This document shows positions 1 through 64,000 of a DNA stretch of 64,000 nt, piece by piece. This DNA comes from Chiloscyllium plagiosum. Lineage: Eukaryota. The notes beneath the pieces were generated by a model. The model was not told where the DNA came from and made no database searches. It was given only the letters and a program-made list of their open reading frames with translations. Made by a program: the position numbers and the translations under genes. The stretch lies in the NCBI RefSeq assembly GCF_004010195.1, contig NC_057718.1, positions 7,329,563-7,393,562 of the forward strand, read 5' to 3'. Positions within the stretch are counted from its first letter, which is position 1, and every line of letters begins with the position of its first letter.

Positions 1-128
1 CTAGCTTATCTCTCCATGCTTCAGGCTCTCTGCCTTTATTCCTGATGAAGGGCTTTTGCCCGAAACGTCCATTTTGCCTGTCCTCGGATGCTGCCTGAAT
101 TGCTGTGCTCTTCCAGCACCACTAATCC
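1..128 (+). mobile_element. PLE 3' end (family A) with hammerhead core at 42-69
   Basis: CTGATGA-A-GGGC TTTT GCCC-GAAA-CGTC followed by the cctcggatgctgcctga...ttccagcaccact tail that recurs throughout the window and is attached to GIY-YIG-region coding sequence at 42416-43069. Confidence 0.8.
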
Positions 129-130
129 AC

Positions 131-330
131 ACCTAACACTGTAGGCAATTTAGCATGGCCAATTCACCTAACCTGCACACCTTTGGATTGTGGGAGGAAA
201 CTGGAGCACCCAGAGAAAATTCACGCAGACACAGGGAGAATGTGCAAACTCCACACAGACAGGCGGGAATCAAACCCAGGACCCTGATGCTGTGAGGCAG
301 CAGTGCTAACCACTGAGCCACTGTGCTGCC
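131..330 (-). mobile_element. HE1-type tRNA-derived V-SINE (partial)
   Basis: Minus strand has A box TGGCTCAGTGG, a B-box-like GTTTGATTC and the V-domain tgtgtggagtttgcacattctcc. Many sibling copies in the window. Confidence 0.85.
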
Positions 331-334
331 CGTA

Positions 335-1260
335 CATTTATTCACAGCCTTAGTTATGTATTCCCCAGGACTCTGGGGGATCCCAGCTTGTTTCAGGTGG
401 AGTCTGTCTCATTGGACAGACATCCCCAGTATGGTCCCAATGCCCCATGAATTCGGAACTGTTTCTCTAGCACCAATCTTTGAGCCCCATGTATGTCTCT
501 TTAATCTTGTTGATCCTGTACCAATTAGCTCAAGGCTCAAAAAGTAATCCAGAGATTATTACATTTCTGTTTCTGCTTTTCAATTGAGCCCCTCGCTGCT
601 CATATTCCCTCATGAGAATCTTATGTCTCTTTCTACCTGTATTGGTGGCACCTACATGGACCACAACAACTGGACCTTTCCCCTCCCACTCCAAGTTTCT
701 CTACATCACAGATGAGATATCCTGAACCCAGGCACCAGACAACACAATCTTGATCCTGGCTACAGAGAACAGAGTCTATTCCCCCTGACTGTACTATCCC
801 TGGCTACGACCACATTTCTCTTCCCTGTCCCCTTTTGAATGGCTCTCTATACCATAGTGCTGTGGTCAGTCTGCTCATCCCTACAGTCCCCACTCTCATC
901 CACACAGGGAGCAAGAATCCCAAACCTGTTAGACCAGCTCAAGGGCTGAGGCTTCTTCAGCACCACCTCCTGGATCCTTCTACTTGCCTTGGCTGGTGGT
1001 CACACCCTGCTGTCCGTGACTACTGACTAAATTCAAATTAGTTCATCTAAGGGGTGTGACTGTCTCCTGAAACATAGCGTGCAGGTAACTCTCCCCCTTC
1101 ACTGATGTTTCGCAGTGTTTGATGCTCAGATTCAAGCTCATCACCTCTGAGCTGGAGTTCATTAAGAATCCAACACTTGCTGCAGATATGATCATTAATG
1201 AACCACAATGGAATCCACCAGCTCCCACATCATGTAGGTACAACACATCGCCTGGCCCAC
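335..1260 (-). mobile_element. Degenerate CR1 LINE ORF1 region (Cys-rich/coiled-coil plus esterase-like)
   Basis: Frameshifted minus-strand translation gives CC..MMWELVD, CSKCW, GESYLHAMFQETVTPLR and VIISGLL, recognised as shark CR1 ORF1 motifs. Confidence 0.65.
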
Positions 1261-1375
1261 CATTCTATTTTATTTATTTACTTTGATTTTTAAAGATTCT
1301 AACTCATCTTTTAGTTTGTAACTTGTAAATATTTCTCTCGCTTACCTTCAATCTGAAAGTAACTTTTTTTTTAAC

Positions 1376-1663
1376 GATTAGATTCCCTACAGTGTGGAAA
1401 CAGGCCCTTCGGCCCAACCAGTCCACACCGACCCTCCGAAGAGTAACCCACCCAGACCCATTTCCCTCTGACTAATGTACCTAACACTCTGGGCAATTTA
1501 GCACGGCCAATTCACCTGGCCTACACATCTTTGTGACTGTGGGAGGAAACTCACGCAGACATGGGGAGAATGTGCAAACTCCACACAGACGGTCACCCGA
1601 GGTTGGAACCGAACCTGGGACCCTGGTGCTGTGGGGCAGCACCACTGAGCCACCATGCCACCC
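1376..1663 (-). mobile_element. HE1 SINE
   Basis: Full HE1 layout with CR1-type tail (gattccctacagtgtggaaacaggcccttcggccc). Confidence 0.85.
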
Positions 1664-1864
1664 CAACCAATTAACTTAGTTTTCCTGTGATGCCACAAGT
1701 TATGCATCAAACTATGAGCTGAAAAAACAATCAAAAAGTGCCTCTTTCCCTCTGCAATGAATTCCTACACTGCCTCCAAATTCCCTGAATTATATCCTCA
1801 CTCAGGTGGGTTCTCAGTACTGATGTGATCTCTCCTTCCTGACTGTGTGCAGCTTCCTGCTAGC

Positions 1865-2160
1865 ACCATCAATAGCACTTCACAAATCTGGGATCTTTAA
1901 CATTAAAAAGGACAAGGTACTTGAGAATGCCATCACCTTCAGGTTTTTCTCCAAGCCACATGCCATCCTGATCATGGAACTATTTCACTGCTATGTCAAA
2001 ATTCTAAAACTCCTTTCTTAACAGTACCATGGGTCTAACTGCATCACAAGAACTGCCATCTTTCAATAAGAGAGCTCATCACCACCTTCTCAAGGGGTAG
2101 TGGGAACAGGTAATAAAGTCCAGACTAGCCACCAGCAGCTATATCCCATGAATAAATAAT
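1865..2160 (+). mobile_element. L2 LINE 3' fragment
   Basis: gctcatcaccaccttctcaaggg...aataaa tail shared with other L2-like fragments and with the DeuSINE tails in the window. Confidence 0.6.
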
Positions 2161-2265
2161 TAACAAGATTAAGAGAGAGGGCTCAAGGAAGTCCAATAGC
2201 AGCTGATGCAACTTTGCAGGACCAGGAACTTACAAAAGGCCCATAATGTACTTCAAAGAATGAAG

Positions 2266-2841
2266 GGGCAGCATAGTGCCTCTCAGTGCCAGGGACCCGG
2301 GTTCAATTCCAGCCTTGGGCAACTGTCTGTGTGGATTTTGCTCATTCTCCCTGAGTCTGCATGGGTTTCTTCCTGTAGTCCAAAGATGTGCAGGTTAGGG
2401 TGGATTGGTTATGCTAAATTGTCTCATAGTGTTCAAGGATGTGCAAGATATGGTGGATTGGCCCTGCTAAATTATCTCATAGTGTTCAAGGATGTGCAAG
2501 ATATGGTGGATTGGCCCTGCTAAATAGTTTCGTAGTGTCCAAGGATGTGCAGGTTAGGGTGGATTGGCCGTGCTAAATAGTCTCGTAGTGTCCAATGATG
2601 TGCAGGTTAGGGTGGATTGGCCGTGCTAAATAGTCACGTAGTGTCCAAGGATGTGCAAGTTAGGGTGGATTGGCCATGATAAATAGTCTCGTAGTGTCCA
2701 AGGATGTGCAGGTTAGGTGCAGTAGTCAGGGGAAATGTAGAGTAATAGGATAGGAAAATAGGTCTGGATGGGATACTCTTTGGAAGGTTAGTGTGGACTT
2801 GTTGAGCCAAATGGCCTGTTTCCACATTGTAGGGATTCTAT
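2266..2841 (+). mobile_element. HE1 SINE with an internal 53-bp tandem array
   Basis: B box GGTTCAATTCC, V-domain, about 6.4 copies of a 53-bp unit, then a normal HE1 tail. Confidence 0.85.
2380..2717 (+). repeat. 53-bp minisatellite, about 6.4 units
   Basis: Unit ccaaggatgtgcaggttagggtggattggccgtgctaaatagtctcgtagtgt starts at about 2380, 2433, 2486, 2539, 2592, 2645 and 2698. Confidence 0.92.
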
Positions 2842-3727: not shown

Positions 3728-4044
3728 GGGTGTGGTGGCTCAGTGGTTAGCACGGCTGCCTCACAGTGCCAGGGTCCCAGGTTCGATTCCACTTTTGGGT
3801 GACTGTCTGTGTGGAGTTTGCACGTTCTCCCCGTGTCTGTGTGGGTTCCCTCCACGTGTTCTGGTTTCCTCCCACAGTTCAAAGATGTGCAGGTTACGTT
3901 GGTTAGCCATACTAAATTGTCCCACAGTGTATGGGTTAGCCATGGGAAATGCAGACTTATGGGGTTAGGGTGGGGGAGCTGGGATGCTCTTTGAAGGGTC
4001 AGTATGGACTGAATGGCCTGCTTCCACACTCTAGGGATTCTATG
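3728..4044 (+). mobile_element. HE1 SINE
   Basis: A box TGGCTCAGTGG, B box GGTTCGATTCC, V-domain and tail. Confidence 0.88.
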
Positions 4045-4394
4045 ACCCTGCTTCCACAGCTCTCTATGGCAAGGGCTCATAACCCTACTGAGAGAAGGGA
4101 TTCTTATTCAACAGTATTATTAAAGAAAGGGGATTTACATTCTGTTGCATTGCTTATATTAAGAAGGAGTGAGTCCTGGAAGAACAGGCTGCTCTAGAAT
4201 TATTTTTATGGCTCCATACCTTTGATCATAGAACCTGAGCGTAGCTATTCGCTCTTGGCAATAGTTTCAGTCTGAAGAAGCAGGCAACAAAACAAACTCA
4301 TGAAACAGAGTGATATTTATCCTGCTCCTGTGTCTTTCACAATGTGAAGATATCTCAAAACCCATTACCTCAACTGAGGTACAGTCAGCATTGC

Positions 4395-6143: not shown

Positions 6144-7838
6144 TAGAACATAGAACATAGAACAATACAGCGCAGAACAGACCCTTCTGCCCTCGATGTT
6201 GCACCGGCCTGTGAACTATTCTCAGCTCAACCCCCTACACTATCTCATCATCATCCATGTGCATATCTAAGGATTGTTTAAATCTCCCTAATGTGGCTGA
6301 GTTGACTACCTTAGCAGGTAGGGCACTCCACTCCCTTACCACTCTCTGCGTAAAGAACCTGCCTCTGACATCTGTCTTAAACCTATCACCCCTCAATATG
6401 TAGTTATGCCCTCTCATACATCATCCTAGGAAAAAGACTTCCACTGTCTACCCTATCTAATCCTCTGATCATCTTGTATGTCTCTGTCAAATCGCCCCTT
6501 AGCCTTCTTCTTTCCAATGAGAACAGACCCAAGTCTCTCAGCCTTTCTTCATAAGACCTTCCCTCCAGACCAGGCAACATCCTGGTAAATCTCCTCTGCA
6601 CCTTTTCCAATGCTTCCACATCCTTCCTGTAATGGGGCGACCAGAACTGTACACAATATTCCAAGAGTGGCCGCACCAGTGTTTTGTATTCTTGCAGCAT
6701 GATATTGTGGTTCCAGAACTCAATCTCTCTACCAATGAAACCTAACACACTGTATGCCTTCTTAACAGCACTATCCATCTGGGTGGCAACTTTCAGGGAT
6801 CTATGCACATGGACTCCGAGATCCCTCTGCACATCCACACTACCAAGAATCTTTCCATTGANNNNNNNNNNNNNNNNNNNNNNNNNNNNNNNNNNNNNNN
6901 NNNNNNNNNNNNNNNNNNNNNNNNNNNNNNNNNNNNNNNNNNNNNNNNNNNNNNNNNNNNNNNNNNNNNNNNNNNNNNNNNNNNNNNNNNNNNNNNNNNN
7001 NNNNNNNNNNNNNNNNNNNNNNNNNNNNNNNNNNNNNNNNNNNNNNNNNNNNNNNNNNNNNNNNNNNNNNNNNNNNNNNNNNNNNNNNNNNNNNNNNNNN
7101 NNNNNNNNNNNNNNNNNNNNNNNNNNNNNNNNNNNNNNNNNNNNNNNNNNNNNNNNNNNNNNNNNNNNNNNNNNNNNNNNNNNNNNNNNNNNNNNNNNNN
7201 NNNNNNNNNNNNNNNNNNNNNNNNNNNNNNNNNNNNNNNNNNNNNNNNNNNNNNNNNNNNNNNNNNNNNNNNNNNNNNNNNNNNNNNNNNNNNNNNNNNN
7301 NNNNNNNNNNNNNNNNNNNNNNNNNNNNNNNNNNNNNNNNNNNNNNNNNNNNNNNNNNNNNNNNNNNNNNNNNNNNNNNNNNNNNNNNNNNNNNNNNNNN
7401 NNNNNNNNNNNNNNNNNNNNNNNNNNNNNNNNNNNNNNNNNNNNNNNNACCTTATCAAAGGCTTTACTGAAGTCCATGAATACCACATCAACTGTCCTAC
7501 CCTCATCTACATGCTTGGTCACCTTCTCAAAAAACTCAATGAGGTTTGTGAGACACGACCTGCCCTTGACGAAACCATGTTGACTATCTGAAATCAAATT
7601 GTTGCTTGCTAGATGATTATAAATCTTATATCTCATAATCCTTTCCAAAACCTTTCCTACAACAGAAGTGAGGTTCATTGGTCTATAATTACCTGGGTCA
7701 TCTCTGCTGCCCTTCTTGAACAAGGGCACAACATTTGCAATCCTCCAGTCCTCAGGTACTAAACCTGTAGACAATGATGACTCAAATATCAAAACCAAAG
7801 GTTCTGTTATCTCCTCCCTAGCTTCCCAGAGAATCCTG
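6144..7838 (-). mobile_element. Young 5'-truncated CR1 (HER1-like) LINE, RT region, spanning an assembly gap
   Basis: ORF with WRIANVVPLFKKG, SQHGFVKGRSCLTNL, DFSKAFDK and LEYCVQFWSPH; (TAGAACA)n tail at 6144. Confidence 0.93.
6862..7449. other. Assembly gap (N run)
   Basis: Run of n characters. Confidence 0.99.
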
Positions 7839-7920
7839 AGATTTTTGTACCTAGGTACCTTGGAACCTAAGATGGTGCCGTGTACTTTTCACTGTACTCT
7901 TGTACTTGAGTAAACGTGAG

Positions 7921-14118: not shown

Positions 14119-15447
14119 AGACAAACAGGAGGCTGGGAGAACACAGCAAGCCAGGCATCATCAGGAGGTGGAGAAGTCAATGTTTCGGGTGTAACCCTTC
14201 TTCAGGACTGGGAGTGGGTGTAGGGGGGAGCTGCAGATAAAGGGGATGGTGGAGGCAGATGAAGTGGGGATAGATGAAGACAGGTAGAGGGTATGGTCTG
14301 GTTGGTCGATGGGAAGAATGAATCTGGTTGATGGCTGGGAGCAGTCGAAGAAAGGGAGCCAGGGGATGGGAAGGGAGGTTATTTGAAATTGGAGAACTCA
14401 ACATTGAGTCCTTCAGTCTGCAGTCTGCTCAGGTGGAAAATGAGGTGTTCCTCCTCCAATTTTGGCAATGGAGGAAGCTGAGGATAGTCATGTTAGAAAA
14501 GGAGTGGGAAGGGGAATTAAAATCAACGGTGACTGGGAGGTCCGGTCGGCCCCTGGGGGCCTGACTGAGATGCTCGGTGAACTGTTGTCTCAATTGACAT
14601 TTATTCTCCCTGATATAGAGAAGACCATATCAGAAGCACCTGATGAAGTGAACTAGGTTGGAAGAGAGGCAGGTGAGAGCTCTTCTCACCTGGGAGGGCT
14701 GTTTGGGACTCTGGATGGAGGTGAGGGGAGTGGTGTGCTGGCAGGTTTTGCTACTTTTCGGGTTGCAGGGGAAGGTACCTGGGGGTTCAGGGGGAAGAGT
14801 GGCACAAACCAAGGACTGTCAAAGGGAACGGTCCTTGTGGAAGGCAGAGACGGGTGGAGAGGGGAAGGTGTTCTTGGTGGTGGGGTCTAGTTGGAATTGG
14901 CAAAAGTTTTTTAAGGATGATGCATCAGATGTGGAGACTGGTGGGTTAGTTGGTGATGTCAAGGGATCCTCTGTCTTTATTGCATTTAGACGGGGGTTTT
15001 GAGCAATGGAACAGGGAATGGAGGTGCCGAGGTGGAAGGCTGACTGGATGACAGAGTGGGGAAAAGTGTGTTGTTCGAAATAGGTGGACATCTGGGATGC
15101 TTGGGAGTGGAATGTCTCCTCGTCCAAGCAGATGTGGCAGAAGTGGAGGAATTGGAAGAACAGGATGTAGTGCTTACAGGATATTGGGTGGGATGAGGTA
15201 TAGTCCAGGTAGTTATGGGAGTCTGTGGGTTTATAGTAAACATACGTCTGGAGACTGTCACTGGAGATGGAAATGGAGGGGTCAAGAAAGGGGAGGGAGG
15301 CGCCCAAGATGGGCCAAGTAAATTTGAGGGGGGGGGTGGAAGTTGTGGGCGAAGTCGATGAACTGCTCCAGTTCAGCCTGGGTGCAGCACGCTGCGCTGA
15401 TGCAGTCATCGATGTAATGGCGGAAGATTTGGGGAAGAGTACCTGTG
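14119..15447 (-). mobile_element. Penelope-like element (family B, probably Neptune-type): RT C-half, GIY-YIG and 3' hammerhead
   Basis: Minus translations FRHYIDDCI, LPFLD, YKPTDSHNYLDYTSSHP, a Cys-rich linker and CLSSNLVHFIRC; frameshifted. TSD CTTCAATGT at 14110-14118 and 15448-15456, inside an old CR1 tail. Confidence 0.9.
14175..14209 (-). ncRNA. Minimal type I hammerhead ribozyme motif
   Basis: Minus strand AGTC-CTGAAGA-A-GGGT TAC ACCC-GAAA-CATT-GACT: 4-bp helix I and 4-bp helix II. The helix III palindrome ACGT appears decayed to ACAT. Confidence 0.7.
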
Positions 15448-17734: not shown

Positions 17735-18059
17735 GAGAAAGTGAGGACTGCAGATGCTGGAGATCAGAGCTGAAAAATGTGTTGCTGGAAAAGCGCAGCA
17801 GGTCAGACAGCATCCAAGGAACAGGCGAATCGACGTTTCGAGCATAAGCCCTGAAGAAGGGCTTATGCGAAAGTGAGGACTGCAGATGCTGGAGATCAGA
17901 GCTGAAAAATGTGTTGCTGGAAAAGCGCAGCATCCAAGGAACAGGCGAATCGACGTTTCCAGCATAAGCCCTGAAGAAGAGCTTATGCCCAAAACGTCGA
18001 TTCTCCTGCTCCTTGGATGCTGCCTGACCTGCTGCGCTTTTCCAGCAACACATTTTTAA
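17735..18059. mobile_element. Tandem plus inverted multimer of PLE ends (family A)
   Basis: Two direct units and one inverted arm. Exact 15-bp TSD CCTATTTTCGATGTG at 17720-17734 and 18060-18074. Confidence 0.85.
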
Positions 18060-19074: not shown

Positions 19075-19269
19075 GTGTGGTACTGGAAAAGCACAGTAGG
19101 TGAGGCAGCTTCCGAGGAGCAGGAGAATCGACATTTCGAGCAAGGAAATCCTGATGAAGGCCTTATGCCCGAAACATCGATTCTCCTGCTCCTCGGATGC
19201 TGCCTGACCTGCTGTGCTTTTCCAGCATCACACTCTCAACTCTGATCTCCAGCGATCCTCACTTTCTCT
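19075..19269. mobile_element. Fold-back PLE-end insertion (family A)
   Basis: Inverted arms around CTGATGAAGGCCTTATGCCCGAAACATC. Exact 16-bp TSD TTATACTGTGTACAGT at 19059-19074 and 19270-19285. Confidence 0.85.
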
Positions 19270-25274: not shown

Positions 25275-25787
25275 GAACAATAGATGCTGGAAAGTTGAAA
25301 CAGAAATTGATGGAGAAACTCAGCAGGTCAGGCAGCAACTGTGGCGAGAGAAACAGAGTTATGACTTGGAGATGCCGGTGTTGGACTGGGGTGTAAAAAG
25401 TTAAAAATCACACAACACCAGGTTATACTCAACTAGGCAAACGTGAGGACTGCAGATGCTGGAGGTTAGAGTCTAGATTAGAGTGGTGCTGGAAAAGCAC
25501 AGCAGGTCAGGCAGCATCCGAGGAGCAGGAAAATCGACATTTCAGGCAGGAGCCCTTCATCAGGAATCATTCGTGATGAAGGGCTCCTGCCCGAAACATC
25601 AGTTTTCCTGCTCCTCGGATGCTGCCTGACCCGCTGTGCCTTTCCAGCACCACTCTAATCTTAACACCAGGTATAGTCCAACAGATTTATTTGGAAGCAC
25701 TAGCTTTCAGAACGCTGCTCCTTGTTGTGTGATTTTTAACCTTGAAACAGAGTTAATGTTCCAAGTCCAGTGACCCTTCATCAGAGC
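25275..25787. mobile_element. Three PLE-end families nested in each other; innermost is a fold-back at about 25436-25662
   Basis: A family D end (gaaactcagcaggtc...gtgacccttcatcag) is interrupted by a family C end (ggtgttggactggggtg...agctttcagaacgctgctcc), which is interrupted by a family A fold-back. aacaccagg(t)tata is repeated on both sides of the fold-back. Confidence 0.75.
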
Positions 25788-26800
25788 TGGTGTGATGAGG
25801 GCTTAGGGGTTAAGGCAATAGACTGGCAATTGGTTATGGTCTGTACATCTGGGTTTGAATGCCATTCTCATTACTTTCCCAATGACTTTGCCCACAATTA
25901 AGGATAGTTTTGTCCCTTTAGCGCAGCAGAAATGGACAGATATTTGCAAGCACTTTCTGTTTATTCATTTCCAAAATGTGGGCATCACTGACTGGCCAGC
26001 ATTTATTGCCTGTCTCTAGTTACCCCGGAGCAGGTAGTGGTGAGTTGCCTTCTTGAACCGTTGCAGTCCATGTGCTGTAGGGAGGGAGTTCCAGGATTTT
26101 GACCCAGCGACACTGAAGGAACAGTGAACGGTGATAGAATTTCCAGGGAGAGTGGCTGGAAGGGGAAATTGCAAGTGGTGGTATTCCCGTGTATCTGCGG
26201 TCCTTGCACTGAGTGGTTAGGATCTGAAATGAACTGCCTGAAAGCTTGAGATTTCAAATAAACGTGTTGGGCTATGACCTGGTGTTGCGTGACTTCTGTC
26301 CAACTGAGATATTCGAGTGGGTATTAGATGAATGGATATAAACAGTATGCAGGGAGATGTGGAGAGGGAAGAAACTGGCATGAAGTAATGATGCTCGTGT
26401 GAAGGGTTAATGCAGACATGATGGGCTGAATGGTCTCGTGCTGTGCCCTATCAGTCCTGTAATTCTGTGAACTTTCTTTCAACCTCTACATAACCGTCCA
26501 GCTCACTCCTCAGAACCCTTTTACCTCATCTCCCTCATTGTTGTCAATTGTCAGAAATCTATCAATCTCAGATTTAAATTTAGCAATCGATCCTGTGTCA
26601 GTTGCTGTTTGTGGAAGAGAGTTCCAAAATCATTTGCGCATCAAAGAGTTTCCTAATTTCACTCTTGAAAGGCCTGACTCTAAATCCGAGGCTCGGCCAC
26701 TCATACCAAAGTCAAACAGTTGAGCAAGCTTCTCAAAACCATTTGTGCCATTTATTTGGCTGATCTGTAACTTAACTTCAGTTATCCGTCTTTGATCTGT

Positions 26801-28854: not shown

Positions 28855-29040
28855 GTAAATCAGAAACAAAAGCAGGCGCTGCTGGAAAAGCTCAGCAGGT
28901 CTGGCAGCATCTGTGAAGAGAAGTCAGAGTTAACGTCTTGGGTCTGGTTCTGAGGAAGGGTCACCGAAACGTTAACTCTGATTTCTCTTCACAGATGCTG
29001 CCAGACCTGCTGAACTTTCCCAGCAACTTCTGTTTTTGTA
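28855..29040. mobile_element. Fold-back PLE-end insertion (family D)
   Basis: gctggaaaagctcagcaggtctggcagcatctgtgaagagaa and its reverse complement flank GTT-CTGAGGA-AGGGTCACC-GAAACGTT-AAC. Confidence 0.8.
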
Positions 29041-29793: not shown

Positions 29794-29996
29794 GGTCAGA
29801 GTGGAGAGTGTGGTGCTGGAAAAGCACAGTACGTCAGGCAGCATCCGAGGGGCAGGAAAATCAACATTTCTGGCATAAGCCCTTCATCAGGAAATTGTCT
29901 GAAACGTCAATTCTCCTGCTACCCGGATGCTGCCTCACCTGCTGTGCTTTTCCAGCACCACACTCTCGACTCTGATCTGCAGCGCTCACTTTCCTC
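29794..29996. mobile_element. Fold-back PLE-end insertion (family A)
   Basis: Inverted arms; TACCATA repeated at 29787-29793 and 29997-30003. Confidence 0.8.
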
Positions 29997-32269: not shown

Positions 32270-32730
32270 GCATTCCTAAGGTACAGTATTAATCTGCACT
32301 TGAACAGGCTGAGATTAATCAAGAACAGTCAGCCTGGTTTTGTTCAGGAGAGGTCATGCCTGACCATTTTGGTTGAATCTTTCAAGGACATGACCTGGTG
32401 TGTGGATGAGGGCAATGTTTGTGATGTAGTCTACTTGGACTTCAGCAACGGTTTTGTTATGGTCCTGAATGGGAGACTGGTAGCGAAGAAAAGACCATAT
32501 GGGATCCAAGAAGATTTGGCAATTTGATCCAGAATTGGCTGAGGAACAACAAGCAGAGGGTGATGGTCAAGGAGAGTTTTTGTTACAGGAATCATAAGTC
32601 CAGTCGGGTTCTGCAGGGATCAGGGGTCCTTCTGTTTGTGGGATATATAAATGGCTTAGGCTCAAATGTAGGATGGTTGATTAGTCAGTTCATGGATGAT
32701 TCGAAACTTGGTGGTAAATAGTGAGAGGGA
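32270..32730 (+). mobile_element. Old CR1 RT fragment that resumes at about 35592-36600 after a younger insertion
   Basis: SQPGFVQERSCLT, VYLDFS and FMDDSKLGG before the insertion; LYKTLARPQPEY after it. Confidence 0.82.
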
Positions 32731-35563
32731 TAGAACATAGAACATAGAACAATACAGCGCAGAACAGGCCCTTCGGCCCTCGATGTTGTGCCAACCTGTG
32801 AACTATTCTCAGCTCGTCCCCCAACACTATCCCATCATCATCCATGTGCTTATCTAAGGATTGTTTAAATCTCCCTAATGTGGCTGAGTTGACTACATTA
32901 GCAGGTAGTGCATTCCACGCCCTTACCGCTCTCTGCGTAAAGAACTTGCCTCTGACATCNNNNNNNNNNTATGTCTCTGTCAAATCCCCCCTTAGCCTTC
33001 TTCTTTCCAATGAGAACAAGCCCACGTCTCTCAGCCTTTCCTCATAAGACCTTTCCTCCAGACCAGGCAACATCCTGGTAAATCTCCTCTGCACCTTTTC
33101 CAATGCTTCCACATCCTTCCTGTAATGGGGCGACCAGAACTGTACACAATATTCCAAGTGTGGCCACGCCAGCGTTTTGTATTGTTGCAGCATGATATTG
33201 TGGTTCCAGAACTCAATCCCTCTACGAATAAAACCTAACACACCGTATACCTTCTTAACAGTACTATCACCCTGGGTGGCAACTTTCAGGGATCTATGTA
33301 CATGGACGCCAAGATCCCTCTGCACATCCACACTACCAAGAATCTTTCCATTGAGCCAGTACTCTGCCTTCCTGTTATTCTTCCCAAAGTGCATCACTTC
33401 ACATTTAGCTGCATTGAACTCCATTTGCCACCTCTCAGCCCAATTCTGCAGTTTATCCAAGTCCCCCTACAACCTGTAACATTCTTCCAAATTGTCCACT
33501 ACTCCACCGACTTTACTGTTGACTAATCCATCCACCTATGCCTGCGTCTAAGTCATTTATAAAAATGACAAACAGCAGTGGCCCCAAAACAGATCCTCGT
33601 GGCACACCACTAGTAGCTGACTCCAGACTGAATATTTTCCATCAACCACCACTCGCTGCCTTCATGCAGAAAGCCAGTTTCTATCCAAACTACTAAATCA
33701 CCCTCAATTCCATGCCTCTGCATTTTCTCCATCAGCCTACCATGTGGAACCTTATCAAAGGCTTTACCACAGTCCATGTATACCACGTCAACTGCCCTAC
33801 CCTATCTACATGCTTGGTCACCTTCTCAAAAAATTCAATGAGGTTTGTGAGACACGACCTGCCCTTGACGAAACCATGTTGACTATCTGAAATCAAATTG
33901 TTGCTTGCTCGATGATTATAAATCTTATCTCTTATAATCCTTTCCAAAACGTTTCTTACAACAGAAGTAAGGTTCATTGGTCTATAATTACCTGGGTCAT
34001 CTCTGCTGCCCTTCTTGAACAAGGGCACAACATTTGCAATCCTCCAGTACTCTGGTACTAAACCTGTAGACAATGATGACTCAAATATCAAAGCCAACGG
34101 CTCTGCTATCTCCTCCCTAGCTTCCCAGAGAATCCTCGGATAAATCCCATCTGGCCCAGGGGACTTGTCTACTTTCACTCCTTCTAGAATTGATAACACC
34201 TGTGTGTAACTAACCTCAATCCTTTCTAGTCTAATCTCTCGTACCTCTTTCTTCTCCTCCATAATATTCTCCTTTTCCTGAGTGAACACCAATGAGAAAT
34301 GTCCATTTTGCACCTCTCTGATCTCTACAGGGTCCACACTCAACTTCCCACTTCTGTCTTTGACTGGCCCTATTCCTACCGTAATCATCCTTTTATTCCT
34401 CACATACCTATAGAAAGCTTTAGTGTTCTCCTTTATTCTATTTGCTAAAGACTGCTTGTGTCCTCTCTTTGCTCTTCTTAACTCTCTCTTTAAATCCTTC
34501 CTAGCTGATCTGTAACTCTCCATCGCCTCATCTGTACCATCTTGCCTCATCAACACATAAGCCTCCTTCTTCTGTTTAACAAGAGATGCAATTTCTGTTG
34601 TAAACCACAGTTCCCTTACCTTACCACTTCCTCCCTGCCTGACAGGGACATACCTATCAAGGACATGCAATATCTGTTCCTTAAATTAGCTCCACATTTC
34701 CATTGTCTGCATCCCCTGCATTTTGCTACCCCATTCTATGCATCCTAATTCTTGCCTAAGTGCATTATAATTGCCCTTGCCCCATCGATAACTCTTGACC
34801 TGTGGCATGTCCCTATCCCTTTCTATCGCTAAACTAAACGTAACTGAATTATGGTCACTCTCTCCGAAGTGCTCACATACATCTAAATCAAACACCTGGC
34901 CTAGTTCATTACCAAGCACCAGGTCCATTGTGGCCTACCCTCTTGTCGGCCCTTCGACATACTGTGTCAGGAAATCCTCCTGTACATATTGGACAAAAAC
35001 TGATCTATCCGACATACTAGAGCTATAGTCAACGTTGGGGAAGTTAAGTCCTCCATTATGACCACCCTGTTCCTTTCACTCCTACTCAGAATAATTTTGC
35101 TAATCCTCTCTTCCACCTCACTGGAACTCTGCGGAGGCCTATAAATAATTCCAAGCAGTGTGACCTCTCCTCTCCTGTTTCTAACCTCAGCCCACACGAC
35201 CTCAGTAGACGAGTCCTCATCAAAAATTCTCTCAGCCACCGTTACGCTATTTTTGACTAACAAGGCCACGCCTCTCCCTCTTTTACCACCTTGCCTGTTT
35301 TTAATGAAAGATCGAAACCCTGGAACCTGCAACATCCATTCCGGACCCTGCTCTATCCATGTCTCCGAAATGGCCAGAACATCGACGTCCCAGGTACCTA
35401 TCCGTGCTGCAAGCTCACCTACCTTATTTCGGATACTTCTGGTGCTGAAATAGACACACTTCAAACCAGCTTGCTGTCTGCCAGCACATTCCTGTGACCC
35501 TGAAATCTTGTCCCTGTCCTTCCTACTCTCATCCTCTTGGGCACTGCAACTACACCTCTGGTT
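32731..35563 (-). mobile_element. Young CR1 (HER1-like) LINE, near-complete ORF2 (APE endonuclease plus RT), frameshifted
   Basis: MKCVYFSTRSIRNK...ISETW...YRPP (APE), KSPGPDGIYPRILWE, SQHGFVKGRSCLTNL and LEYCVQFWSPH; (TAGAACA)n tail; 10-N gap at 32960-32969. Confidence 0.95.
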
Positions 35564-36077
35564 CCCATCTATATATCCTCTGAAGTCTATAGATAGCCAT
35601 AGGCTTCAGAGGATATATAGATGGGCTGGGCAGATGGGCTGATCAATGGCAAATGGAATTCAATTGGATAAATGTGAAGTGATGCACTTGGGCAAGACAA
35701 ACAAGGCAAGGGAATACATGATGAACAGGTCGGACCCTGGGAAGCACTGAGGCTCCTTGATGTGCATGTCCACCAGTCCCTTAAGGAAGTGGGTCAGGCT
35801 GGTAAAGTGGTTAAGAAGGCATATGGTATATTTGCCTTTCTTAGCTGAGGCACAGAGTTGAGGAGCAGGGAGGTAGTGGTGGAACTGTATAAAACATTGG
35901 CTAGGCCACAGCCAGAGTATTTTGAGCACGTCTGGAATCCACTTTATAGGAAGGATGTGATAGCACTGGAGAGGGTCCAGAGGAGATTTACCAGCATGTT
36001 GCCTGGGCTGGAGAGTTTTAATTATGAAGAGAGAGATTGGACAGGCTGGAATTATTTTCCTTAGAGCACAGGACATA

Positions 36078-37794: not shown

Positions 37795-38295
37795 GCCTCG
37801 CAGAGCGCTTCCGGGGACATATCCAGGACACTCACACCAATCAACCCCACCGCCCTGTGGCCCAACATTTCAACTCTCCCTCCCCACTCTGCTGAGGACA
37901 TGCAGGTCCTGGGCCTCCTTCACCACAGCTCCCTCACCACCCGACGCCTAGAGTAAGAACACTTCATCTTCCGCCTCGGAACACTTCAACCCCATGGCAT
38001 CAATGTAGACATCACCAGTTTCTTCATTTCCCCTCCTCTCACCTTACCCCAGTTCCAACCTTACAGCTCAGCACCGCCCCCATGACCTGTCCTACCTGCC
38101 AATCTCCCTTCCCATCCATCTGCTCCACTCTCCTTTCTGACCTATCACCTCTATCCCCACCCCCATTCACCCATTGTACTCTTTGCTATATTCCCCCACC
38201 CTCCTCTCTGACCTATCACCTCCATCCCCACCACCATTTCTGCTCCTCGGATGCTGCCTGACCTGCTGTGCTTTTCCAGCACCACTCTGATCTCT
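37795..38295 (+). mobile_element. 5'-truncated PLE (family A), hammerhead deleted
   Basis: ERFRGH, DMQVLGLLHHSSLTTRRLE and IFRLGTLQPHGINVD (GIY-YIG C-terminal region). TSD CCTCT(T/C)TGAAATTCAG at 37779-37794 and 38296-38311. Confidence 0.85.
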
Positions 38296-42295: not shown

Positions 42296-43185
42296 TGAAA
42301 TACCTACACTGAGACCATCATCAAGTCTCCCTTTATTTTCAAGTGCACAGTACATGGGCTCTGACCAGCCAGCTCAGAGCCACTCCCAAGATCGAGGAGG
42401 TTCTCTGAATTTCTTAGGCAAAAGTGAGGACTACAGATGCTGGAGATCAGAGTGGTCCTGGAAAAGCACAGCAGGTCAGGCAGCATCCGAGGAGCAGGAG
42501 AATCAATGTTTCGGGCAAAAGCCCTTCATCAGGAATGAGGCCGGGAGCCTCTGGGGTGGAGAGATAAATGGGAGGGAGGGAGGTGGGGCTGGGGAGAAGG
42601 TAGTTAAGAGTACAATAGGTGGATGGAAGTGGGGGTAAAGGTGATAGATTGGGGGAGGATGGAGCGGATTGGTGGTAGGGGTGATTGACAGGTGAAACAG
42701 GTCATGAAGATGGTGCTGAGCTGGAAGGTTGGAACTGGGGTAAGGTGGGGGGAGGGGAAATGAGGAAACTGTTGAAGTCCACATTGATGCCCTGGGGTTG
42801 AAGTGTTTCGAGGCGGAATATGAGGAGTTCTTCCTCCAGGCGTCGGGTGGTGAGGGAGTGGTGATGGAGGAGGCCCAGGACCTGCATGTCCTTGGCAGAT
42901 TGGGAGGGGGAGTTGAAATGTGCGGCCATAGGGCGGTGGGGTTGATTGGTGCGGGTGTCCCGGAGATGTTCCCTAAAGCGCTCTGCCAGTCCAGTCTCCC
43001 CAATGTAGAGGAGACTGCATCGGGAGCAACGGATACAATAAATGACATTGGTGGATGTGCAGGTGAAACTCTCTGAATCTCTTGCTTATATCTGTCAGCC
43101 AGGGCTCCCTGATTGAGCCCAGTTAATAACCCCAGTCAAAAATCTCATAGTCAATGAGATCCACATGCTCCTGGTTCCTATCATT
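42296..43185 (-). mobile_element. Solo LTR interrupted by a PLE
   Basis: tgaaata...ctttattt...; resumes after 43083 with ttatatctgtcagccagggctccctgattg. Confidence 0.65.
42416..43069 (-). mobile_element. 5'-truncated PLE (family A) with GIY-YIG region and hammerhead core at about 42499-42537
   Basis: SANVIYCIRCSRCSLLYIGETG, AAHFNSPSQ and LIFRLETLQPQGINVDF. Minus strand CTGATGAAGGGCTTTTGCCCGAAACATT. TSD TCTCTGAAT(T/C)TCTT at 42402-42415 and 43070-43083. Confidence 0.9.
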
Positions 43186-47734: not shown

Positions 47735-48730
47735 TTTGATTTGATTTGATTCAATTTGATTGACTATTGTCACATGTACCTAAGTACAGTGAAAAGTTTT
47801 GTTTGTGTGCAGTACAGGCGGAACATAGCATACAAGGACAGGCAGATCACAGGGTGCTTAGACAGAGCAAGGCATACAAAGTTATGGCTGCACAGGAGAT
47901 TCACAAGGTCAACTTTAGATTTGAAATTTGAGACATCCATTCAGCAGTCTAACAATAGTGGGGAAACACTGTTTTATGAACATGTTGGTATGTGTGTTTA
48001 AGCTTCTGTATCTTCTGCCTGATGGAAGAGGTTAGAAGAGACTATTACCGGGGTGGGAGGGGTCTATGATGAGTTTGGCAGCCTTTCTGTGGCAGTGAGC
48101 TGTTAGCACTGCTGCCTCACAGCACCAGTGTCCCAGGTTCGATTCCAGCCTCGAGCAACTGCCTGTGTGGAGTTTGCTCATTTTCCCCGTGTCTGCGTGG
48201 GTTTCCTCCAGGGGCTCCGGTTTTCTCCCACAGACCAAAGATGTACAGGTCAGGTGAATTGGCCATGCTAAATTGCCCATAGTGTTAGGTGCATTAGTCA
48301 AAGGGAAATGGGTCTGGGTGGGTTACTCTTTGGAGGGTCAATGTGGACTGGTTGGGCAAAGGGCCTGTTTCCACACTGTAGGGAATCTAATCTAATCGAA
48401 ATGGAGTCCATGGATGGAAGGTTGGCTTCCGTGATGGTCTGGGCTGTGCACACAACCTTCTGTAAGTTTCTTATGATCCTGGGCAGAGCAGTTGCCATAC
48501 CAGGCTGTTATGCACCCAGACAGTATGCTTTCAATGGGGCATCTGTAAAGATTGGTGAGGGTCCTTATAGGCATGCTGGATTTCCCATGCCTCCTGAGGA
48601 AGAAGAGGCATTGTTGTGCCTTCTTGACCGTTGCATCTACATGGGAATTCCAGGACAGATTGTTTGTTACCATCAGTCCTAGGGCCTTGGCACTCTCCAC
48701 CCCCTCCACCTCAGTCCGTTGATGTAGATA
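47735..48730 (-). mobile_element. Rex1/Babar-type LINE 3' fragment with a nested HE1 SINE (about 48092-48396, plus)
   Basis: LSWNSHVDATVKKAQQCLFFLRR...LYRCPIESILSGCITAWYGNCS; (tttga)n tail. Confidence 0.85.
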
Positions 48731-49061
48731 TTCCGGTTTGCACTCAAGGGGAAGAATAGTCACCCTTTCCACTGATTCTACATCATTATAACACAAAATG
48801 GCAACTGACGTCCTAGGAACATCACGGTGTGCTGACTTGCATAATTTAATAAGATTCATGAGTTGTTTCAGGTCGCATCAGTGCCCCTTCGGATGCCCTT
48901 AATAAATTGGTAGCCGGTATGACCATTCAGGGAACAGAAGTCCAGCCTGCTCTCTGCTTTTTTGACCCTTTCCCATTCCAGATGGGACAGACACAATTGA
49001 AGGTAGCCCACGTCCCTCGAGTCACTGTGAATAGGAAGCCTTCCATTCAGTTTGTTTCCAC

Positions 49062-49099
49062 AGTTCCTGATGAAGGGCTTTTGCCCGAAACGTCGATTT
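49062..49099 (+). ncRNA. Minimal type I hammerhead ribozyme motif on an isolated PLE end (about 49064-49156)
   Basis: CTGATGA(49067-73)-A-GGGC TTTT GCCC-GAAA-CGTC. Intact core, ACGT palindrome and GUC triplet; helix I is weak. Confidence 0.7.
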
Positions 49100-49360
49100 T
49101 ACTGCTCCTCGGATGCTGCCTGAACTGCTGTGCTCTTCCAGCACCACTAATCCAGAGACTGCCTGGGACAATGCATACCTTGCACGCTGAAAATACTCAG
49201 CAGTTGTCTCCTTCATTGGGTTCTTCATTGTTTATTTAACAAGAAATGAAATAGATACAATTTTCCCTGAAGGAAATCATTCCCTCCACTATTACAGTTT
49301 CAGGACATTGCTCATACAAAGTGTCATCCATCTGAAGGCTCTTACCATTATGAGGTACTC

Positions 49361-51897: not shown

Positions 51898-54189
51898 TCT
51901 CTTAAGCCACTGTAGTCTGTGTGCTCTAGATAGATACACAATGCCATTGGATGTGGAAGGTGTTTCAGGATTTTGACTGAGCAACACTGAAGGAATGAGG
52001 ATATATTTCCAAGTCTGGATGGTAAATGGCTTGAAGAGGAACTTGCAGTTGGTGGTTAGGGTTAGGGGTAGGGTGAGCAAGGGCTATCCTATTCAACTGC
52101 TGCCATCGTCCTTCTACGTGGTAGAAGTTGTGAGCTTGGGAGGTGCTGTCAATGGAGCATTGGTGGGTTGTAGCTGTGCATCTTGTGGATGGTACACACT
52201 GCTGCAACTCTATGACATTGAAGTCAGCAGATGTGTCTGAATCAAGTGGGCTACCTCGACCTAAATAGTGTCAATCTTCCAAATTGTTGTCAGAACTCCA
52301 CTAGACCGTGGAACAGAGAAGAATGAGTTTATCAGTTTTGGAAAGAAGATCATTGACCACAAACTTTAACTCTGTCTCTCTCTTCACAGATGCTGCCAGA
52401 ATTACTGAGCATTTACAACAAATTCGATCTTTATTTTTTGCATATTTCCAGCAGCTGTAAGGTTTGCTTTGACAGCAGAGTGGGGCATGACGGAATGTAT
52501 GTTCTGTTCAGATGCGGGAGGAGATTCGATGGGGTTTTTGAGAACATGCCTGTTTTGAACTTGGAACAGTTTGACCTGAAAAACATATTGAAGATTTATA
52601 ATGAAATGCTTCACTTCCCTGTAACAAGTCAGAAGTGACTGGTAAACTGATAAAATCAAGTGAGTTCAGCCAGTCTATGGAAGAAAAACCTCATTAGAAC
52701 TAACTTATTAATTTTGAAAAAGTCAGATAAATTCTCCTTACATTTCTTGAAGTTAACTTTAATATAATTATGCAGTGTGTACTTATGCAGTATCATAAAT
52801 TGTCATATGAAAAATGTTTAAAAATTGGCATTTTGCAGTAAATGTTCAGATTTATAAAGACTTGACATCAATGCTGTCACTTAGCACCGTGGCTACCCAG
52901 CAGCTAGTGAATAAATAAGCCAGAAGCAAGCATGCATTGACATGCGGGAGCCTTATAGGGATTGTACAGGGCATCAGGGAGTCACGCACAGTGAAGGGAA
53001 ATTGGAGAGAATATTGCCCAAGATACCCAGATCAGAAAAACAGTACAACTGAATGTGCTGCCAAACATCAACAAGAACTTACACTCACAGAACACCCTTA
53101 AACCAAACATTGCTAAAAAATGTGCTTTTTGTCTTGGATGCAACAGGACAGGGATGCAAGAAACCAGGCACCGGGTTATAGTCCAACACGTTTATTTGAA
53201 ATCACTCTTGAAAGAGCAGTATTCTGAAAGCTTGAGATTCAAATAAACCTGTTGGACTATAACTTGGTGTTGTGTGATTTCTGACTTTGGACCATGGTTG
53301 GCATGGAAATACCAAAGTATCTTTTAACTGTCAATCTTCGCTTGATAACTAACCTCAGACTAGGCAGGTAGAATCTGATTGGTCAGGATGTCGCCACAGG
53401 GAGTGCTGCAGAGATTGGCAGTTCCTATAATCCTTTTCCAATGAACGTGATGAAATGTGTATACAGAGTCCTTTTATCTGCACAGGACAGAGTCCCTAAT
53501 GTGAGAAAACATGTCACCACTGACAAACGCAGATGAAATACACAGTGGTCCTAACTGATAATCTTACTTTTAACATCATGCGATATCCCAGAATCCCTGA
53601 CAGAAGAGTCATCAATCAAGATTTGACAGTGAGTCACCACTGGTAAAATTAGGACAAGGGACCAAAAGCATGGTCAATTTACAGAGATAATTTTGGTGAC
53701 ATCGGTTAACTGCAAAGAACTGTAGACGCCGAAAATCTGAAACAAAACCAGAAATTGTTGGAGAAACTCAGCAGGTCTGGCAACAACTGTGAGAGAGAAG
53801 TGGAGTTGACATTTTGAGTCCAGTGACCCTTCTTCAGAACTGATAGTAGCTATTGCAGAGACATTGCAATTGATGGAGGAGGGAGTAATTAAAAGGTGGA
53901 CAGATTTAGGGAGATTTCAGAGAATCAGACATGAACAGCACTGAACTTCATTTGATCCTGCAGACAGAAAGGAAATAGGATAGAAACGATTCTCAGAGGG
54001 AAAAGGTATAATTTTACAATGATCAGTCCCGCTAGTGATAAATCTTATCTTTGGATTATGAAAATCTTTTCAAATATTATGCACCATTTTTTTCCCATTG
54101 ATTATGTAGACTACGTGGCCAGATTTTCAGTGGGTGAGTTTTCCTCTTGGCAGGGTATTCACAACAGGAACCTACAGTAACTTTTCCAA

Positions 54190-60992: not shown

Positions 60993-61558
60993 ACAAACCT
61001 GGGGTCATGCTAAAACTATACAAAGCATTGATCAGAGCACAGTTGGAATACTGTGAACAGTTTTTGCAAGGTTTGTGAAGGTTTGTAGCTCAGGTTGAGG
61101 TTTAGGGCGTAGGTTTGCTCACTGAGCTGTAGGTTTGATATCCAGAAATTTCATTACCTGGCTAGGTAACATCGTCAGGGGTGACCATTTCATTACCTGG
61201 CTAGGTAACATCGTCAGGGGTGACCTCCAAGTGAAGAGAAGCTGTTGGGGTTCCTGGGGTTTGTGGTGATGTCATTTCCTGTTCGTTTTCTGAGGGGTTG
61301 ATAGATGGTATCTAAATCTAAGTGTTTGTTTATGGCGTTGCGGTTGGAGTGCCAGGCCTCTAGGAATTCTCTGGCATGTCTTTACTTAGCCTGTCCCAGG
61401 ATAGATGAGTTGTCCCAGTTGAAATGGTGGGTTTTTTTTCATCCGTGTGTATGAGGGAGAGAGGGTCGAGTCTTTTTGTGGCTAGCTGGTGTTCGTGTAT
61501 CCTGGTGGCTAACTTTCTTCCTGTTTGTCCTACGTAGTGTTTGTGGCAGTCCTTGCAT

Positions 61559-61822
61559 NNNNNNNNNNNNNNNNNNNNNNNNNNNNNNNNNNNNNNNNNN
61601 NNNNNNNNNNNNNNNNNNNNNNNNNNNNNNNNNNNNNNNNNNNNNNNNNNNNNNNNNNNNNNNNNNNNNNNNNNNNNNNNNNNNNNNNNNNNNNNNNNNN
61701 NNNNNNNNNNNNNNNNNNNNNNNNNNNNNNNNNNNNNNNNNNNNNNNNNNNNNNNNNNNNNNNNNNNNNNNNNNNNNNNNNNNNNNNNNNNNNNNNNNNN
61801 NNNNNNNNNNNNNNNNNNNNNN
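61559..61822. other. Assembly gap (N run)
   Basis: Run of n characters. Confidence 0.99.
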
Positions 61823-62071
61823 AAAAGCCACCATTTCGACTGGGACAACACATCTATCCTGGGACAGGCTAAGCAAAGACATGCCAGAGAATTCCTAGAG
61901 GCCTGGTACTCCAACCACAACGCCATAAACAAATGCATAGATCTAGATGCCATCTATCACCCTCTCAGAAAACGAACAGGAAATGACATCACCACAAACC
62001 CCAGGAACCCCATCCAGGAGAAAGATATAAATAGAAAGCAGGAGACAACAGCTTCGCTTCACTTGGAGGTC

Positions 62072-62112
62072 TCCACTGATGATGTTACCTAGCCAGTGAT
62101 GAAACGTCTGGA
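62072..62112 (+). ncRNA. Minimal type I hammerhead ribozyme motif (best preserved in the window)
   Basis: TCCA-CTGATGA-T-GTTAC CTAGCCA GTGAT-GAAA-CGTC-TGGA: perfect 4-bp helix I, 5-bp helix II with two G-U pairs, ACGT palindrome. Predicted cut after C62108. Confidence 0.8.
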
Positions 62113-62791
62113 TATCAAACCTACAGCTCAGCGAGCAAACCTACACCCTAAACTGTGAACAGTTTTGAGCAATCCCCAAGCCCCCACATATCCAAGGAAA
62201 GATGTACAGGCATTGAGGATAGTCCAGAGATGGTTCACCAAGTTGATTCCAGGTATAGAGGGACTATTTTATGAGGAGAGGTTGAGTTTGTCAGGCCTGC
62301 ACCCTTTGGACTTTAGAAAGTTTAGAAGCACAAGAATGACAGGGTAGATGCTGAGAGATTGTTTCTTCTTGTGGGAGAGTCGGGAACCAGTAAATATAAT
62401 CTCAGAAAAAGGCATTGCCCATTTAAACAGAGATGAGGACACCATTTTTTCTTCTAAAAGATTAGTGAATCTGTGGAACTCTTTCACAGAGGTTGGCTCA
62501 TTAAATATATTCTAGGCTGAGATGGACAGATTTTTAATTGGTTAGGGAAGGAAGGGTTATCGGGAAAAGACAGGAAAGTGCAGTTGACGGTTATCAGATC
62601 AGCCCTGATCTTGCTGAATGATGGAGCTGACTCATTATGCTATGTCCACTCCCATGTTTCATATTGATATTGTCTTTTGTGCAACAGAATGCTTTGGCCT
62701 TCAACACATTGTTCAATGTATTGCCAAAGACGTTTCAAGCGCTTGATGGAATGCGTGGAAGATAGCTATACACAATAGCAAATAATCAAGA

Positions 62792-63062
62792 TTTGGAGAT
62801 GCCGGTGTTGGACTGGGGTGTACAAAGCTAAAAATCACACAACACCAGGTTGTAGTCCAACAGGTTTAATTGGAAGCACTAGCTTTTGGAGCGCTGCTCC
62901 TTCATCGGGTGGTTATGGAGAACACAATTGTAAGACACAGAATTTATTGCAACAGTGCTGTAACGTTTACTATAAATTCTGTGTCTTACAGTTGTGGACT
63001 CTATAACCACCTGATGAAGGAGCAGCACTCTGAAAGCTAGTGCTCCCAGTTAAACCTATTGG
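62792..63062. mobile_element. Fold-back PLE-end insertion (family C)
   Basis: gcactagcttttggagcgctgctccttcatcgggtggttat versus ataaccacctgatgaaggagcagcactctgaaagctagtgc. Confidence 0.8.
63008..63042 (+). ncRNA. Minimal type I hammerhead ribozyme motif
   Basis: CAC-CTGATGA-A-GGAG CAGCA CTCT-GAAA-GCTA-GTG: 3-bp helix I, AGCT palindrome, CUA triplet. Confidence 0.7.
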
Positions 63063-63784
63063 CAAATAATCAAGGTGGTCAATGAAATGATGGCCTTTAT
63101 ATCTACAAGACTGGGGTGTAAGGAAGCAGAAGTTATGTTGCGGCTATAAAATCTCTGGTTAGATCCCACTGGGAGTACAGGAAGCAGATGTGGGCACCAC
63201 ACGGTTGAATGGATATATTGGCCATGGAGGGAGTACAATGCAGGTTTACAAGAATGATACCTGGACTACAGGGGTTAAATTACAAAGAGAGATTATACTA
63301 ATTAGACCAGTTTTCTTAAGAATTTAAATGGTTAAGGAGTGATCTGGTCAAAGTCTTCAAGATATGAATAGAAAAAACAGGTTAGATAAAGAGAAACTGT
63401 TTCATCTAGTCGGGGATTTTAGAACTAGGGGGCATAGTCTGAGAATTAGAACTAGACCATTTTGGGAGAGATGTTAGGAAGCACTTCAACAAACAAAGAG
63501 TGGCAGACTTTTCCACAAATGGCAGTTGGGCATATTCTTAATCTGAGAGGAGAATGATTTAAAAAAGACATGAGGGGCAATTCTTTTGCACAGAGTTATT
63601 TGTGGGTGGAATGAACTTCCTGAGGAAATGATGGATGTGGGTACAGTTACAACATTTAAAAGACATTGAGATAAATACATGAATAAGAAATATATGGAGG
63701 GATGTGTGCCAAGCATTGGCAGGTGGCACTAGTTTAGTTTGGGATAATGGGTGGCATAGACTGGCGGACCAAAGGGTGAAGTTA

Positions 63785-64000
63785 TGCTGGAAAAGCACAG
63801 CAGGTCAGGCAGCATCCGAGGAGCAGGAAAATCAACATTCCGGGCAAAAGCCCGTCATCAAGAAGGGCAGATTCCTGATGAAGGGCTTTTGCCCAAAACG
63901 TCAATTTTCCTGCTCCTCGGATGCTGCCTGACTTGCTGTGCTTTTCCAGCACCACTCTAATCTTGACTCTAATCTCCAGCATTTGCACTGCGCACTTTCG
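63785..64000. mobile_element. Fold-back PLE-end insertion (family A)
   Basis: tgctggaaaagcacagcaggtcaggcagcatccgaggagcaggaaaat and its reverse complement; both hammerhead cores are mutated. Confidence 0.82.

Follow-up and report, generated by a model that had tools for sequence, protein, structure and literature searches.

The stretch of DNA analyzed here (the window: 64,000 nucleotides [nt] of Chiloscyllium plagiosum contig NC_057718.1, positions 7,329,563 to 7,393,562 of the forward strand) contains part of an AIG1 homologue and, in and around its introns, many short motifs built like hammerhead ribozymes, which raises the question of whether these motifs are genuine ribozyme sequences, what kind of element they belong to, and whether they cleave. 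A preliminary description of the window had proposed that at least five families of Penelope-like elements (PLEs) seed minimal hammerheads throughout the AIG1 introns. We consider it very likely (a probability of about 0.9) that the motifs are type I minimal hammerhead motifs (min-HHRs) in the 3′-terminal module, forming pseudo-long terminal repeats (pseudo-LTRs), of endonuclease-positive PLEs of at least five families. Almost every copy in the window is a dead tail fragment that lies passively in or around the AIG1 introns.

All motifs share a common layout, in which one strand of helix I is followed by CUGANGA, one extra nucleotide, a stem-loop (stem II), GAAA, a 4-base palindrome (ACGU or AGCU, or a CpG-decayed form, which in many copies reads ACAT or ATGT), one base, and the partner strand of helix I. 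The sites cited for the five families are all present in the window on the strands claimed for them. The box pair CTGANGA..GAAA occurs 26 times, compared with 7.57 ± 2.66 times in shuffled sequences (none of 100 shuffles reached 26), and 13 PLE-type matches carry both boxes. A descriptor (requiring the core with no more than one extra nucleotide, GAAA, and ≥3 bp in stem II) was applied to the window and to 200 kb drawn from 20 other contigs (264 kb in total); it matched 10 times in the window and 18 times in the other contigs, and did not match at all when the same 264 kb were read backwards. One unpaired nucleotide follows A9 in 26 of these 28 matches, being A in families A to D and U in family E. 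A covariance model made from 45 distinct motifs detected 18 window modules with E ≤ 0.001, a number that rises to 26 at E ≤ 1, so that the “dozen or more” cores first supposed are indeed there. With one tandem twin added, the modules number 19; 12 of them keep both core boxes, and only three (49061-49100, 62070-62114, and 63005-63045) retain every feature.

Could the matches be chance pairs of short boxes, or microRNA (miRNA) hairpins? Sub-threshold Rfam miRNA matches do lie over four of the hairpins, and one match, at 14478, is chance-like, lacking the extra nucleotide, helix I, and the palindrome. However, the miRNA scores (31-44 bits) are far below the gathering thresholds (72-100) and reflect the arms of inverted repeats, and in the 3.56-Gb assembly the intact-core pattern has 166,475 matches, as against 309 for its reversed control. 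The genome-wide and backward-read controls thus refute an origin by chance or from miRNAs, which we take to be almost certainly wrong.

The 45 distinct motifs have invariant columns at the C, U, G, A, G, and A of CUGANGA and throughout GAAA. The sole variable position of the first box is position 7 (U, A, G, or C), which is the position left unconstrained in hammerheads. Position 10.1 pairs with 11.1 as G-C in 31 motifs, as G.U in 12 (family E has G.U), and as A-U in two; A15.1 and U16.1 are found in 44 of the 45. No helix III hairpin is formed; the 15.2-16.2 pair is complementary in 36 motifs, and the remaining nine are CpG-decayed. The two core boxes give an unambiguous alignment of the motifs, which allows a column-by-column comparison of helix I and the base of stem II. 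We tested covariation at 11 pairs in the 45 rows, with 500 shuffles and slid partners as controls: 75.6% of cells were paired, compared with 60.8 ± 1.2% in the shuffles (none of the 500 reached 75.6%) and 17.8-47.2% with slid partners, and the covariation score was 0.422, compared with 0.162 in the shuffles and 0.03-0.15 with slid partners. The helix I pair next to the core is formed in 39 of the 45 motifs (C-G in 33, A-U in three, U-A in three) and the second pair in 42 (U-A in 29, A-U in nine, C-G in four); the third and fourth pairs are formed in 23 and 26 motifs, respectively, and the fifth and sixth are mostly unpaired, so that the effective length of helix I is 2-4 bp. The minimum-free-energy fold consists of helix I and stem II around an open core in five of eight family representatives. 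The claim that different sequences keep the pairing therefore holds for helices I and II across these 45 motifs, with rows that are repeat copies and a stem II that was preselected. The stems were also said to be unrelated; five families are found, but A, B, and D have a homologous 3′ flank and are therefore diverged relatives rather than unrelated sequences.

The link to PLEs comes from what lies upstream of the motifs and from the structure of the insertions; it is on endonuclease remnants and insertion structure that the assignment rests, and it names no clade. In family A, a GIY-YIG remnant (43085-42702, reverse strand) lies about 170 nt upstream of the core; its product has 52% identity with residues 785-889 of an 894-amino-acid (aa) protein with RVT_1 followed by GIY-YIG, and its closest named relatives are uncharacterized carpet shark proteins. 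Directly upstream of the family B module, the region 15328-14337 (reverse strand) is a remnant of the C-terminal part of a PLE open reading frame (ORF) with the endonuclease, matching residues 128-420 of protein P0002 with 45.7% identity over 293 aa (tblastn), the match extending to residue 468. Family E has upstream, both in the window and at another locus, a frame with the signature YVGQTGR...EH. Endonuclease remnants also precede a sixth family (F) and a D-like copy (L030) in other loci, and a family C copy (L081, one of 11 examined). Remnants are thus found upstream of all five families and, together with the tail, the inverted pairs, and a pseudo-LTR insertion described below, they bear out the PLE origin that had been proposed.

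In the long copies, the GIY-YIG reading frame ends 110-550 nt before the motif, and the insertion has its 3′ end about 65 nt beyond the motif. The family A module of about 95 nt has a fixed 3′ end, variable 5′ ends, and an optional 36-nt tail seen at some copy ends only. The copies are 5′-truncated, arranged as head-to-head pairs (at least 10 in the 264 kb), or partially tandem with a target-site duplication. For example, locus L012 is a pseudo-LTR-like partial tandem with a target-site duplication at its bounds and the tail on one copy only, and in L034 an inverted 5′-truncated copy lies upstream of the long copy. Tails, inverted 5′-truncated partners, and variable 5′ ends have been described for PLE insertions (PMC8557442), and a tail, inverted copies, and a protein-assisted hammerhead for PLEs as well (PMC11167929).

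Most copies are modules of 95-130 nt or hairpins of about 200 nt that carry no coding sequence, and the 406-nt tandem unit of L012 is without most of the ORF. Such short fold-back units might be an independent non-autonomous class, like short interspersed nuclear elements (SINEs), miniature inverted-repeat transposable elements (MITEs), or retrozymes, rather than PLE fragments, and, according to a preprint, animal retrozymes originate from PLE pseudo-LTRs. Against this, the module runs unbroken into a 3′ untranslated region and an endonuclease frame (42416-43085 in the window, L034, and L026); the body of the L012 unit resembles the start of a reading frame, as judged by eye; the tails, inverted truncated partners, and variable 5′ ends are those of the published PLE insertion signature; and DNA-transposon-type terminal inverted repeats with target-site duplications were not seen. 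An independent class is thus very unlikely, and we read the units as fragments of PLEs.

Whether the motifs cleave is a separate question. Going by published work on PLEs, in transcripts of an active master copy helix I (2-4 bp) and stem II would fold within one RNA; two motifs, in tandem pseudo-LTRs or in two RNAs, would join through the palindromic ACGU or AGCU and so form helix III; and each core could then cut after GUC, GUU, or CUA, probably weakly and with the aid of the element’s protein. In poly(A) single-cell RNA data with the same species label, 1,179 of 12.96 million reads lie on the module, about equally in both orientations, which looks like passive transcription within host RNAs. 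We also examined where copies begin, taking as a copy start three non-consensus bases before an anchor. The raw counts were 172 at position 227, 284 at 228, 1,374 at 229 (G1.1), 409 at 230, and 925 at 231; they are confounded, since among the first 100 rows at 229 about 30 belong to a variant with one inserted base and 12 have an internal deletion, roughly two thirds of those at 231 represent a variant in T-run length, and the anchors for 227 and 228 include a fast-decaying CpG. Among the first 20 “other” rows at 229 and the first 20 rows at 230 (19 usable in each), 11-14 and 14, respectively, are true ends. With the indel variants removed, about 500 copies begin at the cut site and about 300 at the next base, an excess of only about 2-fold over neighboring positions that concerns less than 1% of copies; some of those at the cut site have their fold-back turn right at that nucleotide.

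A different boundary is far more common. Of 59 family A copies in the 264 kb, 32 have their start within a few bases of the 5′ edge of helix I (3-4 nt before CUGANGA), and most of these are head-to-head pairs whose junction lies at that point (49064, 19143/19149, 25567/25569, 29893/29895, and 63864/63871 in the window; also L014, L016, L030, and L031), and most of the family C copies seen share this boundary. Such an end is not one that hammerhead cleavage would produce. This start indicates that the usual template RNA began there and was uncut at the hammerhead site; the bulk of copies in this genome is made from RNA uncut at the scissile bond. A type III hammerhead across the head-to-head pairs was rejected on inspection, because helix I would not close. 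It is conceivable, though we think it doubtful, that the module of about 95-130 nt is a retrotransposition unit of its own and that the roughly 500 copies starting at G1.1 are a footprint of self-cleavage in vivo in a vertebrate. If that were true, the start at the helix I edge would point to a short, abundant RNA with a 5′ end that comes from a start site or a processing step, not from hammerhead cleavage.

These boundaries also bear on the idea that the motif is a real and selected PLE RNA structure with a job other than self-cleavage, such as protein binding, dimerization, or an element at the template end. The frequent starts at the helix I edge rather than at the scissile bond, the weak excess of G1.1 starts, reads that form no pile of ends at that bond, and the weak helix I of the commonest family would all fit such a role, and so would published observations: hammerhead mutants leave insertion in vitro unaffected, and Anolis reads do not end at the cut site (PMC11167929), while for PLE min-HHRs a low in vitro activity is reported and room is left for other functions (PMC4209133). 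On the other side, it is precisely the catalytic nucleotides that stay the same where the flanks are unrelated, with only the free position N7 varying; the cut-site triplet is always NUH in undecayed copies; and protein-assisted cleavage is abolished by C3 and G8 mutations (PMC11167929). We therefore regard a role apart from cleavage as improbable, if still worth keeping in view, and retain the reading of the motifs as min-HHRs of PLEs.

Several points weigh against that reading. Only two of the six helix I pairs tested are formed in most copies, and in family A, the commonest, helix I reads C-G, U-A, U.U, A-U, with an internal U.U. The rows of the covariation test are copies of repeats, not independent lineages, and the descriptor that selected them demanded stem II pairing, so for stem II only the pair types are informative. 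Rfam gave no match in the window at gathering scores and 23 at E ≤ 10, among which no hammerhead family appears, the models of types I, II, and III finding nothing even at this level; the window motifs have the catalytic core boxes and the type I helix order in common with those families, but lack the helix III hairpin and the loop-loop tertiary contacts. Read starts or ends do not pile up at the predicted scissile bond 49094/49095 in the poly(A) single-cell reads, a library type poorly suited to showing this, and the excess of copies that start just after the scissile bond is weak and suggestive at most. Concerning the PLE assignment, the Pfam GIY-YIG profile (PF01541) matches 43085-42702 at E 0.0025 with 18.5 bits, below the curated cut-off of 22.6, and the reverse transcriptase (RT) region is N in each long copy examined (3,066 nt of N in L034), RVT_1 upstream of the endonuclease being visible in database relatives only. 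A genome-wide search with the GIY-YIG profile gave one weak match among the 150 of 14,402 candidates that were scored, and so has no bearing on this point.

The closest known system is the set of PLE min-HHRs described by Cervera and de la Pena (2014; PMC4209133), which have no helix III, a palindromic 15.2-16.2, G10.1-C11.1, and a short helix I, fall into several covarying consensus families per genome, are mostly solitary or on opposite strands, and cleave weakly, as dimers only. The window motifs match this definition feature by feature and are therefore members of that kind: they are of type I with no real helix III, and share the palindrome, the one unpaired nucleotide between A9 and 10.1, the G10.1-C11.1 pair, the short helix I, the several families with compensatory changes, and the predominance of single copies or opposite-strand pairs, few of them in full elements. 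They differ in number (166,475 intact cores here, compared with about 4,000 in the coelacanth and about 9,000 in Xenopus, by descriptors that are not the same), in helix I (often 2-4 bp here, 4-5 bp in the published ones), and in stem II (4-5 bp in families A to D, compared with 7-8 bp in Schistosoma). In Poseidon PAc of Anolis carolinensis (Frangieh et al., 2024; PMC11167929), the hammerhead likewise lies about 100-200 nt upstream of the insertion end, with an optional tail beyond that end, tandem and inverted copies, and no RNA-seq reads ending at the cut site. The PAc ORF, however, starts inside the hammerhead, whereas here the motif lies about 110-550 nt past the endonuclease stop and, as read from the sequence, the frame that begins at the ATG of CUGAUGA is only about 17 codons long.

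Animal non-LTR retrozymes (Cervera and de la Pena, 2020, PMC7229834; Li et al., 2026 preprint) are also hammerhead-bearing, non-coding, PLE-related repeats, and the 406-nt partial tandem in L012 recalls them, but theirs are tandem arrays of canonical type I motifs that give circular RNAs, whereas the motifs here are minimal and dispersed. Circular-type read joints, which “go back”, occurred only in traces (five reads from two starts), and same-strand exact-core pairs less than 5 kb apart numbered three (406, 2,025, and 2,119 nt) among the first 100 matches listed for contig 1. We therefore do not class the motifs as retrozymes. The preliminary description had suggested that such a shark population was uncatalogued. 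Full-text literature searches returned no catalogue of shark min-HHRs, the text of the 2014 paper and its searchable supplements (one supplement file not being covered) name no cartilaginous fish in the available part, and the counts in a 2026 preprint, for one chondrichthyan, are of tandem retrozymes. Host and scale are thus new, but the novelty was overstated, since the kind is already known as the PLE min-HHR of other hosts.

The modules of the window are in different states of decay. Family A is represented at the left edge by module 36-75 (forward strand, 50.9 bits), which is cut by the window edge and has intact boxes and an intact 4-bp stem II, with C at position 1.1, so that helix I has a C.C mismatch at its base. 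A worn family A module at 17965-18004 (forward strand, 28.7 bits) has a mutated GAAA box and sits in a rearranged cluster of inverted arms (17746-18051). Four head-to-head pairs belong to this family: 19077-19253, whose right-arm module 19145-19184 (forward strand) has intact boxes, a mismatched stem II, and helix III ACAU; 25448-25654, with modules 25530-25569 (reverse strand) and 25567-25606 (forward strand), covered by a sub-threshold Rfam miRNA match; 29810-29961, whose module 29857-29896 (reverse strand) has intact boxes, a stem II mismatch, and helix III AUGU; and 63785-63987, with modules 63828-63867 (reverse strand) and 63869-63908 (forward strand), each with one mutated box. The short copy 49061-49156 (forward strand) contains module 49061-49100 with all features; its start coincides with the 5′ edge of helix I. 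There are two long copies. The first (42416-43085, reverse strand) runs from the endonuclease remnant 43085-42702 through a 3′ untranslated stretch and module 42538-42499 (51.4 bits, helix III decayed to ACAU) to a 3′ flank with the tail. The second (37797-38286, forward strand) consists of an endonuclease remnant (37797-38063), the 3′ untranslated region, and the 3′ flank, in that order, its hammerhead core being deleted; in 38064-38286, and also in L073, exactly the hammerhead was lost by a short-repeat deletion, and the 3′ untranslated region and 3′ flank were kept.

The family B module (14173-14211, reverse strand, 38.3 bits) has helix I AGUC/GACU, stem II GGGU/ACCC, and a helix III decayed to ACAU. 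Two worn B/D-like modules, 25749-25790 (22.3 bits) and 53802-53843 (26.4 bits), both on the reverse strand, have a mutated GAAA box. The family D module (28944-28979, forward strand, 23.4 bits) has helix I GUU/AAC, helix III ACGU, and U17, a stem II of just 2 bp, and an inverted arm upstream. Family C forms a head-to-head pair (62874-63045), in which module 63005-63045 (forward strand) has all features (helix I CAC/GUG, helix III AGCU, A17) and the arm 62874-62914 (reverse strand) has mutated boxes; the spacer between the arms (62915-63004) is a hairpin of about 75 nt, and long family C copies (L075, L077, and L081) have a related sequence ahead of the core. Family E has the complete module 62070-62114 (forward strand, 35.8 bits; helix I UCCA/UGGA, helix III ACGU, C17), with a 5-bp stem II closed by G.U and an endonuclease remnant upstream, and two tandem modules 39 nt apart (61139-61223, reverse strand), with intact boxes and 7-bp stem II and decayed helices I and III, upstream of which a GIY-YIG remnant lies past the N stretch 61559-61822. 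In this tandem, with its 39-nt period, the start of the second copy replaces helix III of the first. A relative of family E among the genome-wide matches (for example, on contig 1 near 545,601 and 2,134,818) has a G-C closing pair, a double change from U-A to C-G in stem II, and a mid-stem A.G or G.G mismatch.

Runs of N occur in the sequence examined (6862-7448, 32960-32969, and 61559-61822 in the window; L002, L010, L011, L013, and L034), and in long copies they often start 40-350 nt upstream of the module, where the PLE reading frame is expected. An open frame of 1,181 aa and similar ones beside the endonuclease were rejected as artifacts of these N runs. The large ORFs of the window were likewise rejected as PLE sequences, being of the type of long interspersed nuclear elements (LINEs; APE and RT, with L1 ORF2p and R2 as the best solved relatives). 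The LINE-type remnants at 32690-35605 and 6404-7888 (both reverse strand), with an APE endonuclease (PF03372) and RVT_1, are unrelated to the hammerhead modules. Some 200 nt away from the family A copy at 49064, an open frame (48395-48877, reverse strand) matches ALKBH8_N (PF09004, E 5.1e-9) and may be part of a different repeat.

The host gene is a FAR-17a/AIG1 homologue (PF04750, E 8.2e-13), three exons of which were found on the reverse strand, at 38649-38473, 30562-30446, and 8856-8740. The motifs had been placed throughout the AIG1 introns; those between 8856 and 38473, including six of the 13 box-intact motifs, are certainly intronic, and the remaining ones only probably so, because the first and last AIG1 exons were not found in the window.

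Beyond the window, an exact family A 32-mer occurs 15,500 times in the genome. The family A module 49064-49156 is found at ≥90% identity in thousands of contig pieces from runs of two organism codes (A and B), and sampled words of this stretch occur in runs of four organism codes, so the family is shared by related species. The prediction of a very large ribozyme population in this shark thus holds for sequence cores, each a candidate for cleavage: there are at least 1.6 × 10^5 intact cores, about one per 20 kb, many of them within genes. These results do not change what is known of how min-HHR motifs work. They extend the known pairing of PLEs and minimal hammerheads to a shark genome, account for a class of short hairpin repeats and of sub-threshold miRNA-like matches in annotation, and provide ribozyme biology with a very large natural collection of variants of a single minimal fold.

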